This document shows positions 291-56,800 of a stretch of 64,000 nucleotides of DNA, piece by piece. Numbering within the stretch: position 1 is the first letter of the stretch; each line of letters begins with the position of its first letter. Below the pieces are notes generated by a model. That model did no database searches and was not told where the DNA came from. It worked only from the letters and a program-made list of their open reading frames with translations. The DNA comes from Eledone cirrhosa. Its lineage: Eukaryota. Both the position numbers and the translations under genes were made by a program. Where the stretch lies: contig OZ024740.1 of the NCBI GenBank assembly GCA_964016885.1, positions 148,676,001 to 148,740,000 on the forward strand, written 5' to 3'.

Positions 291-490
291 AAGGAAAAGA
301 GTCAGGACCCCGACGGCTGAGCTCCGGCTGAGCTCCGGCTGTTTCGACAGCTAGATCTAGATGTCGAAACGGCCGGAGCTCAGCTGTCATGGTCCTGACT
401 CTTTTCCTATTACCCACTCAACTACCCAAAGTATCGAGTACTCTGGTGCGTTATGGTCCACCTGGTTCCTTACCACACTTCCTTCGTCAT
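291..490 (+). repeat. Hairpin-plus-tail element (family A), copy 1
   Basis: Inverted arms 292-408, then tail tattacccactc...cacttccttcgt, embedded in (TA)n. Confidence 0.9.
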
Positions 491-1256
491 ATATATATAT
501 ATATATATATATATATATATGTGTGTGTGTGTGTGTGTGTGTGTGTGTGTGTGTGTATTCATGTTATTAAGGTTAAATAGTGACCCTTATTACAGGGTCA
601 TCAAACAAGAACTAAGGTTTCAATAGCAGGCACAGTATAAATAAAGGAAAACTAGATGTGACGGAGGGGGATATAATGACCCCTTTTCAATACCCCCCCC
701 CCCCTCCCTGCCACCTAGAGTCTTTCTTTTTTTATGCTGTGACTGCTATTCAAACGTTAGTCTTTGTCCGATGACTGTTATAAACAGGAGAAACTTCAGA
801 GTATTAAGTGTTTCTATTGTAGGCATAAGGCCAGCAATTTGGAGGGGAGGGAAAAGTCGATTAAATCGACCCCACTGCATTACTGGTGCATTATTTATCG
901 GCCCCGTCAGGATGAAAGGCAAAGCTAACCTCGTTACGATTTGAACTCAGGTCGTATAGGGCCATAATGCTATGTTGTAAAGCATGTTGTCCGACGCTCT
1001 ACCGATACTGTCAATCCAGTAATAAGGCTCACTACTTAGCCTTAATACAATGAATATCAAAACTCTACTTCGGTATTGAGTACTCTTTTTTCTAAGCCAT
1101 AAACCACATGTGGTTATATATATATATATATATATATATATATATATGTGTGTGTGTGTGTGTGTGTGTGTAAAAGGTAAACAGAAATAACAACACAATC
1201 GGTACAGTATATGGAAGGTATATATCAGGTTAACGCTTGATATAGCAGGAAGAGGG

Positions 1257-53800: not shown

Positions 53801-56800
53801 TTCGTTCGCATTTTGAGATATCCTATTAAGGATAAAATCTCGAGCTTCGAACTCGTCAGGAAAGAAACTCATAGGACAAGTAATTTTCTAAAGTGATCCC
53901 ACCCAGAAACAAATTCAAAATGGCTAAGAATCGTGACGTGGCAGTGGTCAAGTCAGAAAGAATGTGATTGGTTGCTTACGGCGAGTGGGCTGGTTGCTAG
54001 AAAGCGCAGCCCAATATTGCCCAAATTGCATCTCAACCTAATGGGAGATTATTAAATATAAAGATTTACATATACATACATACATATATATATATATATA
54101 TATATATATATATATATATATATATATATGTATGTATCATAAATCATGTCTTTAGAATCATCAGATATTAAAATATATACTATTTCTTCTTCTAATTAGC
54201 ATAATTAACCATATAAAAAATCAATCAGAACAACCTATAAGAATAAATGCTCTTATGGGGAAATCTCCGACAAATAACTGAACGTAGCCTCTTCGCGGCG
54301 GCCCCGGTCGAGTATTTATCCAACATTTCGATCGCATGTAGAAACTGACTAAATATACCATCAACCATACACAATTAGCTGTAAAATTAAACTTAGAAGA
54401 AATGCGCACATACCGTAATTATATATATATATATAGTTTAGAGATTGTAACTTGAAGTTACTGTTGGTGTACCAAATTGACCACTCGATGCGTAGTTACG
54501 TCATTTCCAGTATGTACTTTGAGGTTGTACTAAGCAGAGTGTAATAATAATAATAATAAGCAGGGACGAAGTGACAAATTACCATTAGGTTTGTTCAGGT
54601 GTGACGCGCATTTCACGTTTGATCACTTCAAGTTTCGATCTCTATCGATGGGGTCTGACTCTAGAATCAAAAGCTCATCTGAAGTCTAATGAGTTTTTGA
54701 TTCCTCAGTCGGGCTCGATCGATGGCTATTGGCTCTTCGGCTGATCATTCGCGAAACCCGCGTCACACCTGAACAGAACTAATGATAATTTGACACGTCG
54801 CGCCTACTTATTGCTATATATATATATATATATATATATATATATATATATATATATATATATATATATATATATATATAGCAATAAGTAAGGACGACGT
54901 GTCAAATTATATGGTGGCTTAGTTCGGATCTAGCTGTCGAAACGACCAGAGCTCAGCCGTCGGGTCCTGACTCTTTTCCTATGTGTGTACATATATATAT
55001 ATATATATATATATATATATATATATATATGAATGTAGGACAATAATATCGTCCGTGTCTTCGTTATTGGTATGTTATTTATTTGTTATTTTACGATAAT
55101 TCATATTCTAATTTGTTATGCTAGTTTCTAATTTACTATGAATGAAATGAAACATAAACATAATGTTCGAAATACACATTCACTTTTTCTGAAATAATGA
55201 ATCTTAAAATAAATTACGAAATAGTGAATGCAAATCATATCTTATTTTTTTAATTGATACTCAATTTTAACAACTTACAAAACAAAAACATAATAGAGAA
55301 CATTTTTACCTTGAGATTAATTATATGTCATAATAATTGTGTCTACGTTTTGCACAAGGCGAGTAATTATTCCAGTACATTATAGGTACTTTATTTTATC
55401 TACCCCGTAAGGATGAAAGGCAAAGTTAATCTCGGCGGGATTTGAACTCAGATCAGAGAGGGGCGTAACTCTGTGCTGCAAAGCATAGCGTCCGACCCTT
55501 TACCGTACTGCCAGCCCACCAACCTTGATTATAATAATGCCTTAACAAGGAAATGAACTCTGATAAAAGACAGTTGTGCATTCCTAACCAAATAATCTAA
55601 TGCCTACATGTAGCAAACAAACCATCTGAAGTTCTTTTGCATTTATGAATATGTATCAATATATATATATATATATATATATATATATATATATATATAT
55701 ATATATATATATATATAATATATATATATATATATATATAATATATATATATATATATATATATATATATATATAATATATATATATATATATATATATA
55801 TATATATATATATATATATATATATATATAATATATATATATAATATATAAGATCAAAAGATGGTTAAAAGAGTTCCATGTATTTTATTATGCGCATTTC
55901 AAAAACAAATATCATCATGCAATAACATTTGTGTTTTCATCAGATAAAATAGGAAGACATGATATGAAGGTTAAAAAACACTTGTGAATAGTGCAGTTTT
56001 AAATCAACATATGAAAAGTAGTTTTAGATTGATGTGTGATATTGGGAAAACATTTTTTGAGGGGTGGGTGGGTGGAAAGGATGAAAAAGAGGAGGAGATG
56101 AGAGTAAAAAGTGGAGGGGGAGGAGTATAATGAGGAAGGATGAGATAGGAGGAGAGATGGGTGATAGAGAGAGAGAGATAGCTTTTATAACTGAGAAAAA
56201 TATATTGTTTTACATAGAGAGGTTGAAAAACCGTTGGAAGATAATATATAAATTAAAAGAATTTGAAAATTAACGAAGAGAAAAATAATGTTAAGTTAAG
56301 GTTTGTATATTGAAGGGTTTAATAATATGTGCGATGAAAAGAAATTGTTAATATGTATTAAGAATAATATTTATGGGTTTAATAATATGTGCGATGGAAA
56401 GAAAATGTTAATATGTATTAAGAATAATATTTAAGGGTTTAATAATATGTGCGATGGAAAGAAAATGTTGATATGTATTATTAAAAAAAAACAATAGTAA
56501 TGTAAGTAAGGATATATTAGATGAGCATGAAAGGGAGGAAAAAATAATGAATTGAGGATGAATAATCTAACGTCAAAAAATGTTTATGTTTACGAAGGAT
56601 TTTTTCAAGGTGATATAAAATAAGAATATATTGTACTGTGTAATAATTGTTTCTATGTTAGGCACAATGAGAAAAGGTACAGATTAGGGGTTAGAAATTA
56701 AAAGAAAAAGGAAAAGAAAAGGAAAAGGAAGAAAGGGAAGTGATAAATAGGAGTGATATAGAATGAGTAACTAGTATTATATAATGTATAATAAATAACT

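Follow-up and report, generated by a model that had tools for sequence, protein, structure and literature searches.

Hairpin repeats in TA tracts of the Eledone cirrhosa genome are ORF-less insertions of an abundant Penelope-like element

The six hairpins of the window and their genomic abundance

A 64,000-nucleotide stretch of the Eledone cirrhosa genome (GCA_964016885.1, contig OZ024740.1, positions 148,676,001 to 148,740,000 of the forward strand; hereafter the window) carries six copies of a short repeat composed of a hairpin and a one-sided tail. An earlier note, made from the sequence alone, had described these copies as one family found only in or beside (TA)n and had proposed how they arise. 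A sequence check of the whole window found all six at the reported sites and homologous to one another, and a search of the window with the six copies returned no seventh. The hairpins are minimal insertions of an abundant Penelope-like element (PLE) in TA repeats: clipped ends of the element, which lack its open reading frame (ORF). In its complete form a copy joins a tail arm to an inverted short arm. Positions in the element are numbered from +1, the first base after the GTC of the predicted hammerhead ribozyme described below.

291..487, plus strand: copy 1, subfamily C; inverted short arm at about 293-352 with an 11-bp duplication, tail arm at about 354-487
26135..26309, minus strand: copy 2, subfamily C; tail arm 26135-26261 on the minus strand, short arm 26258-26309 on the plus strand
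27058..27248, plus strand: copy 3, subfamily A; inverted short arm 27058-27118, tail arm 27119-27248
35412..35575, minus strand: copy 4, subfamily B3; tail arm 35412-35516 with an internal deletion, short arm 35521-35575
41506..41700, minus strand: tail arm of copy 5, subfamily B3; runs through the hammerhead, to about 41677-41700
41697..41884, plus strand: second arm of copy 5; an inverted, non-overlapping piece of the parent 3' untranslated region (UTR), 85% identical to L229
54912..54982, plus strand: copy 6, subfamily C; only a short arm, spanning about -50 to the short end

Two of the extents first given had to be redrawn: copy 5 is longer and copy 6 begins earlier, at about 54912. The hairpins of copies 3 and 4 have z values of about -19.5 and -20, matched by none of 200 shuffles. 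The predicted ribozyme cut falls at 388/389 in copy 1, where the GGGG is mutated, at 26231 and 26288 in copy 2, and before 27156 in copy 3, whose short arm extends deeper into the parent than its tail arm. Copy 5 keeps the 5' half of the ribozyme core, TTGAGAA, at 41665-41659 (minus strand), and an internal deletion takes out its stem II 3' strand and GAAAC; its second arm stops at another TAT site before TATA, a twin-priming geometry.

The same ends recur throughout the 3.0-Gb genome. An exact search with a 33-letter tail pattern matched at 27,459 sites, against 0 for a control pattern; the next base is not T in only 358 of these matches. A short-end pattern for the B subfamilies alone has 19,564. 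The association with (TA)n also holds genome-wide: among 70 position-sampled tails, TATA lies within 3 nt in 67 (9.4% of random positions) and (TA)4 within 4 nt in 64 (4.8% of random positions). In the window, copy 6 ends in CCTAT and then abuts GTGTG rather than running straight into (TA)n. Insertions stop at either of two fixed ends that lie 77 nt from each other, and the element itself has a TAT at both; this pattern fits the one-sided tail known from PLEs, with two internal start sites for reverse transcription. The tail end was given earlier as ccttcgt-TATA; the tails of copies 2 and 4 lack the terminal ccttcgt. Copies are unevenly spread and the window is richer than average, since the adjoining 200 kb hold 10 clusters and sixteen arbitrary 10-kb stretches hold none. 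In a DNA run (X2), summed contig depth, which is not a copy number, is about 1-3.5 million over the terminal 150 nt and 3-9 thousand over the start of the ORF. One RNA run (0.06 share) gave a single contig, which covers the 3' UTR and nothing else. Close pieces of the element's pseudo-long terminal repeat (pLTR) are also present in two runs that are coded as other organisms (X6 and X7), and one X6 contig includes a hairpin joint.

The parent element and its predicted ribozyme

Being short, abundant, flanked by TA and built on an inverted repeat, the hairpins could be taken for derivatives of a DNA transposon that favours TA, such as a miniature inverted-repeat transposable element (MITE), a Helitron-type element or a rolling-hairpin element. 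Their sequence, however, is contiguous on both sides with a reverse transcriptase (RT)/GIY-YIG ORF in tandem units, they show heavy 5' truncation and variable centres, and no transposase parent was seen, so that we give such an origin next to no credence. A MITE was rejected on the asymmetric ends, the variable centres and the RT parent, as the earlier note had already argued in part, and a flip-flop (rolling-hairpin) reading was dropped because the centres are joints of two parent pieces.

The parent was reached by walking upstream from longer copies, through a GIY-YIG ORF and then RT, which bears out the PLE origin suggested earlier. It is a tandem-forming unit of about 3.54 kb (pLTR, ORF, 3' UTR, pLTR; 3,527-3,559 bp in seven measured copies). 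Seven full-length copies have both a 5' and a 3' pLTR, and L227 is a triple tandem whose neighbouring units are 99.4% identical. Of 9,327 candidates in a protein search, 150 gave scored matches, and 8 of the 20 that were fetched have open frames longer than 690 aa. The ORF, of about 719 aa, encodes an RT (YRDDG-type) followed by a C-terminal GIY-YIG endonuclease (VIY..YIG motifs). Pfam returned no match for the protein of L223 and found GIY-YIG in a 35%-identical neighbour (window 21795-23117) and in the top homologue, P0001. In full-length copies the tail runs on into a short 5' UTR and the ATG, and both fixed ends of the hairpins are therefore internal sites of the element. Two ORF-bearing elements, L198 and L210, have a 5' cap that is exactly the hairpin of the window.

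A single RT and GIY-YIG ORF, tandem units and pLTRs with an inverted 5'-truncated copy, a one-sided tail and, by prediction, a hammerhead in the pLTR (type I fold, variant core, stem II covariation) are what is expected of an endonuclease-containing (EN+) PLE. Protein motifs are RLRWR at 35, SDKT at 116, CNCPDRSIC (a CxCX5C linker) at 572, CNLC at 670 and CKH near 700; the endonuclease lacks a CCHH motif, with a single cysteine between VIY and YIG. Among 1,968 homologues, DKT occurs in 111 of the 120 best, almost all of which are without a name and about 40% identical. The available text of PMC8557442 describes the Hydra clade by RW[K/R], DKT, the CxCX5C linker, terminal CxxC and CxH, (TA)n targets and the absence of CCHH, and, with its motifs set against that description, the parent protein appears Hydra-like. 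The Naiad clade was ruled out because the endonuclease is C-terminal (not N-terminal) and the motif is DKT (not DKA), and Nematis and Neptune because there is no CCHH and DKT rather than DKG. The canonical CTGANGA hammerhead, a trait of the Hydra clade, was not found: the core is TTGANAA and the full-length units contain no CTGANGA core, so we file the element as a variant, Hydra-like by protein motifs.

The PLE ORF that adjoins copy 3 (27352-29148) was considered as the parent and rejected (40.6% amino-acid identity, no pLTR in common). It is one of three further broken Hydra-like PLE ORFs in the window, at 27352-29148 (plus strand), 21783-23640 (minus strand) and 33330-33796 (plus strand), which are 35-49% identical in protein to the hairpin parent and represent separate families.

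The right arm reads, in order, the stem II 3' strand, GAAAC, a stem III of 5 bp whose 9-nt loop contains GAGCTC, GTC and GGGGT. In the parent, ACCCC, TTGANAA and the stem II 5' strand are found some 60 nt upstream of GAAAC. We predict that GAAAC is the 3' half of a type I hammerhead with a variant U3-A8 core, in line with the earlier note, which had raised the possibility of such a half-ribozyme. The search for a parent with CTGANGA that the note had proposed failed because the core is TTGANAA: it gave 60 scattered hits, and the 30 inspected were chance joints or inserts, none a parent. Cores in 94 segments read TTGAAAA (30), TTGAGAA (21), CTGAGAA (15), TTGAAGA, TTGATAA and TTGACAA (3 each) or otherwise (2), with 17 unscored; Among 26 C-type segments, 12 have TTGATAA. 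All four bases occur at position 7, and T4, G5, A6 and A9 are constant in scored cores. Across 19 copies chosen from five subfamily groups, 93.9% of cells are paired (27-51% in slid controls), with 15 two-sided changes, all in stem II. Unconstrained folds recover the three-helix topology in three of four segments (L224, L106 and L323).

Several points weigh against this prediction. The core has a C3-A8 mismatch in 15 of the 94 segments; stems I and III have no two-sided changes; and the covariation copies are related subfamilies, so the independent events are few. The fold of L229 lacks the full topology, and folding z-scores are weak in three of the four segments (-0.63, -0.71 and -1.67), with -2.87 for L106. 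An Rfam scan of L227 500-4600 at E up to 10 returned no hammerhead family, only false matches to TA repeats.

The palindrome of loop III is kept in A, B and C types, and for one copy the self-dimer is computed at -27.7 kcal/mol versus -5.6 for the monomer. The conservation count for the loop is dominated by two subfamilies and gives no sign of selection on the palindrome. The loop may have a role in pairing two pLTRs.

Hairpin geometry and the formation of the arms

We mapped 99 tail-anchored copies onto natural reference copies: 30 of the main tail set, 40 from further stretches and 29 of 30 from a further tail search (L161, a duplicate, was left out). An adjacent inverted arm is present in 72. 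The claim that the short arm always stops at cctat/TA does not hold, as the full tail is on the inverted arm in 2 of the 72 and the arm of L008 is 6 nt longer. Inner ends are clustered, at -46 to -34 in 55 of the 99 tail arms and at -48 to -35 in 60 of the 72 short arms; the cluster falls inside the loop of the predicted stem II, and there is a smaller peak at +1.

The earlier note had proposed that each insertion templates its own inverted arm by snap-back, in which one cDNA folds back and copies itself. A version of this reading adds later deletions that reshape the centres. Self-priming, on an antisense template, has also been proposed for inverted pLTR palindromes (PMC3846280, available text). 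That the inverted arm is newly formed at each insertion agrees with our data: in position-ordered samples, centres vary between copies within one subfamily, even where the arms are identical. The arms of a copy nearly always match, as snap-back would have it. In 47 hairpins, the median arm distance is 1 within a copy and 5 between copies, and the variable segment is identical between arms in 35, compared to 18% between copies. Genome-wide, hairpins are B1-B1 in 2,617 cases and B1-B3 in 5. The reported covariation of arms within a copy thus stands in general, but the substitution pairs quoted for it mark subfamilies, and in each of copies 2, 3 and 4 the two arms differ at some positions. The co-varying segment is the stem I internal loop, which defines the subfamilies. 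The within-copy match fits snap-back and a common source RNA alike, and the five mixed-subfamily hairpins, which differ at three diagnostic sites, speak against snap-back.

Snap-back also predicts that the tail arm always reaches deeper. It does so in 29 of the 72 hairpins, with 7 ties, whereas the short arm is deeper in 36; where the difference is at least 10 nt, the short arm is the deeper in 21 and the tail arm in 5. The inner ends of the two arms are uncorrelated (rho 0.09, p 0.53, 48 pairs between -50 and -28). Five copies (L124, L126, L132, L248 and L251) have arms without any common sequence, the short arm of L124 having about 120 nt that are absent from its partner, and L179, L243, L278 and window copy 5 are long non-overlapping inversions. 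Many centres are near-perfect palindromes, as described earlier and as expected of snap-back, yet many others are asymmetric joints: in the 72, there is an overlap of 0-5 nt in 46, inserted bases in 25 and a 13-nt overlap in one. Single-base spacers at +1 leave no space for a fold-back loop, and arms that end at the sense-strand cut speak for a sense template. We consider snap-back unlikely.

Some joints (L163, L174, L353, L341 and L045) are filled by short templated repeats of nearby element sequence, which we take to be the kind of fill expected of polymerase theta-type end-joining.

The hairpins might alternatively form a self-propagating, non-autonomous family, being read through and re-inserted by the PLE protein. 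This would account for the fixed size and the stop near -40, and the tight clustering of inner ends, the much higher depth over the terminal 150 nt than elsewhere in the element and one centre repeated among the top matches of one search are in its favour. That search, however, was biased toward the centre of its query, and the fixed-unit reading proved to be an artefact of the query's own centre. Centres are widely different in position-ordered samples even with identical arms, both arms are accounted for as pieces of the parent, and full-length copies are capped by the same hairpin. Such a family is decidedly improbable.

It is instead likely that each hairpin consists of two separately primed, 5'-truncated pLTR cDNAs of the PLE, joined head-to-head inside a TA repeat. 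The GIY-YIG endonuclease would cut both strands of (TA)n, and each target 3' end would prime RT on sense RNA via a TAT match, the first using the tail site and the second the short site. The templates would be the two pLTRs of a single tandem transcript, or else a pair of transcripts from one locus. Each cDNA would end prematurely, either in the structured stem II region or where hammerhead cleavage had left an RNA end, and host end-joining would link them with 0-5 nt of microhomology or added bases. The geometry counts, the uncorrelated inner ends and the five copies without common arm sequence make dual priming with end-joining likelier than snap-back. Two internal RT start sites and two-strand cutting have been shown in vitro for an anole PLE (PMC11167929, available text). 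Other observations count against dual priming: in the same in vitro system ribozyme cleavage was unnecessary for insertion (PMC11167929, available text), the evidence for dual priming is entirely genomic, and the model leaves the stop at -34 to -48, which might be an RT stop or a cut in RNA or DNA, unaccounted for. Later deletion of unstable palindromes could also blur the centres, and the tail-arm starts of L116, L137, L166, L266 and L270 look like internal deletions, not truncations.

The +1 peak bears on the ribozyme itself. Genome-wide, 547 arms start exactly at +1 after three foreign bases, compared to 53 in the same test at -3. The 30 fetched +1 rows are 26 distinct insertions: both arms lie at or within 1 nt of +1 in 12 (five of them with a single base between), one arm is at +1 and the other at -37 to -45 in 4 (two per orientation), 4 are joined directly to TA and 6 are other. 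The excess suggests that cut sense RNA served as a minority template and hence that the hammerhead cleaves in vivo. Our search of the openly available literature turned up no description of insertions that end where a PLE hammerhead cuts. Many control rows starting TTA or CTA resemble internal deletions that join an upstream GTC to the GTC of the cut site, in which case the control count would be inflated.

This suggestion is tempered by the test having a single control position and unequal letter sets; by the A-only count before the end, which is roughly 180 versus 44 (from 10 of 30 rows scaled, and a hand count of the control); and by GGG microhomology or a single deletion, which account for some +1 rows. 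As most arms pass the cut site, most templates were uncleaved.

We tentatively extend the dual-priming proposal to a possible single ribonucleoprotein (RNP), in which two pLTRs would be paired by the self-complementary GAGCTC loop of the non-canonical hammerhead, both target strands would be primed at two internal sites of sense RNA, the ribozyme would partly cut the templates in vivo and the cDNAs would be end-joined.

Relation to known elements and wider meaning

In LINE-1 twin priming, a cDNA starts from each of two target ends and the pair is then joined in inverted orientation, giving inversions without overlap. Window copy 5, L179, L243 and L278 match this geometry. Unlike in LINE-1, the two arms here are usually duplicates of one stretch of sequence, as a tandem transcript with two pLTRs would permit.

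The PLE literature already describes inverted pLTRs, tails and TA targeting (PMC8557442, PMC3846280, available text of both). The C-terminal EN+ PLEs of the Hydra clade (PMC8557442, including Hydra-1_Obim from octopus) share with the present element the order RT then GIY-YIG, the clade motifs, the (TA)n target and a hammerhead near the 3' end, and Penelope-13_HM is described as having a 5'-truncated inverted copy at its 5' end. Their units, in the available text, are generally under 3 kb, compared to 3.54 kb here, and the motifs in its File S2 are all canonical CTGANGA, in contrast to the U3-A8 core, stem II domain of about 60 nt and 9-nt loop III found here. The hammerhead (canonical) and protein start listed there for Hydra-1_Obim are different sequences from those of the present family. 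PAc (Poseidon from Anolis; PMC11167929, available text) has in common with our element two internal RT starts that define a one-sided tail, an AT-rich target, cleavage of both strands, a hammerhead in the pLTR and mostly uncleaved templates. It differs in its tail (30-40 nt, 77 here), in its start sites, which are non-homologous and inside the ORF where ours precede the ORF and have a TAT match to the target, and in having no RNA-seq reads ending at the ribozyme cut, where we see a genomic peak.

The inverted pLTRs of Drosophila and Adineta Penelope elements (PMC3846280, available text) likewise have head-to-head pLTRs, palindromic joints and a one-sided tail. Those pairs flank ORFs or captured DNA, are few and were read as self-priming; here there are tens of thousands of ORF-less pairs, whose geometry can be counted and speaks against self-priming. 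The U3-A8 minimal hammerheads of Schistosoma Cercyon (PMC4209133, available text) share the core covariation, the type I fold and a palindromic loop III suited to a dimer, whereas ours, with a full 5-bp stem III, a 2+6+1 loop and a long stem II insert, is not a minimal hammerhead. The family is not described in the literature covered (including the available text of PMC13282606, PMC6765202 and bioRxiv 10.64898/2026.07.22.740005), with Repbase and subscription papers outside the scope; it may already be catalogued. The new part is a mechanistic footprint in the insertions themselves, which suggests dual priming over snap-back and hammerhead cleavage in vivo.

The window contains further repeated, TA-flanked inverted repeats (12606-13509, 55782-56178, 42501-42756, 25388, 35653-36032, 54555-54910, 24714-25837, 41955-42206 and 36045-36279), with 10-69 matches in fetched loci where queried. 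Canonical CTGANGA..GAAA hammerhead-like cores occur at 13235, 12885, 55943, 42733 and 25388. These repeats are probably the ends of further PLE families that behave likewise. Another TA-associated family, with a compact canonical hammerhead and 34 matches in fetched loci, is seen at window 1172-1320 and in L144 (reverse strand, near 8523). An OATP organic anion transporter gene (Pfam PF03137) has exons at 38561-38983 and 48462-48854 (plus strand), with copy 5 between them. A tandem array of 31-bp units occupies 49323-51125 (58 copies, 97% matches). A dispersed repeat of about 200 bp, presumably SINE-like, is present in at least 10 pieces (871-1018, 2477-2605, 5287-5485, 37758-37966, 43777-44022, 55318-55576, 59435-59655 and others). 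We take the fragments at 9505-10368 (plus strand) and 13998-19814 to resemble ORFs of a hAT-type transposase and a non-LTR retrotransposon; neither had a Pfam match at E 0.001.

How PLE inverted pLTRs and tails form and whether PLE hammerheads act in vivo are stated as open in the available text of PMC8557442 and PMC4209133. With tens of thousands of short, young insertions and near-intact ORFs, this family makes such questions countable in a genome and testable in vitro. Neither descriptor searches for CTGANGA nor Rfam picks up this abundant predicted hammerhead variant, and hairpins in TA repeats that look like MITEs can be retroelement ends filed wrongly. The insertions also seed long hairpins in introns, as copy 5 does between two OATP exons. 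If the one-RNP reading is true, the inverted pLTRs and tails of all EN+ PLEs would be explained without self-priming or an antisense template, and the insertions would hold the first known junction-level evidence of a PLE hammerhead cleaving in an animal.

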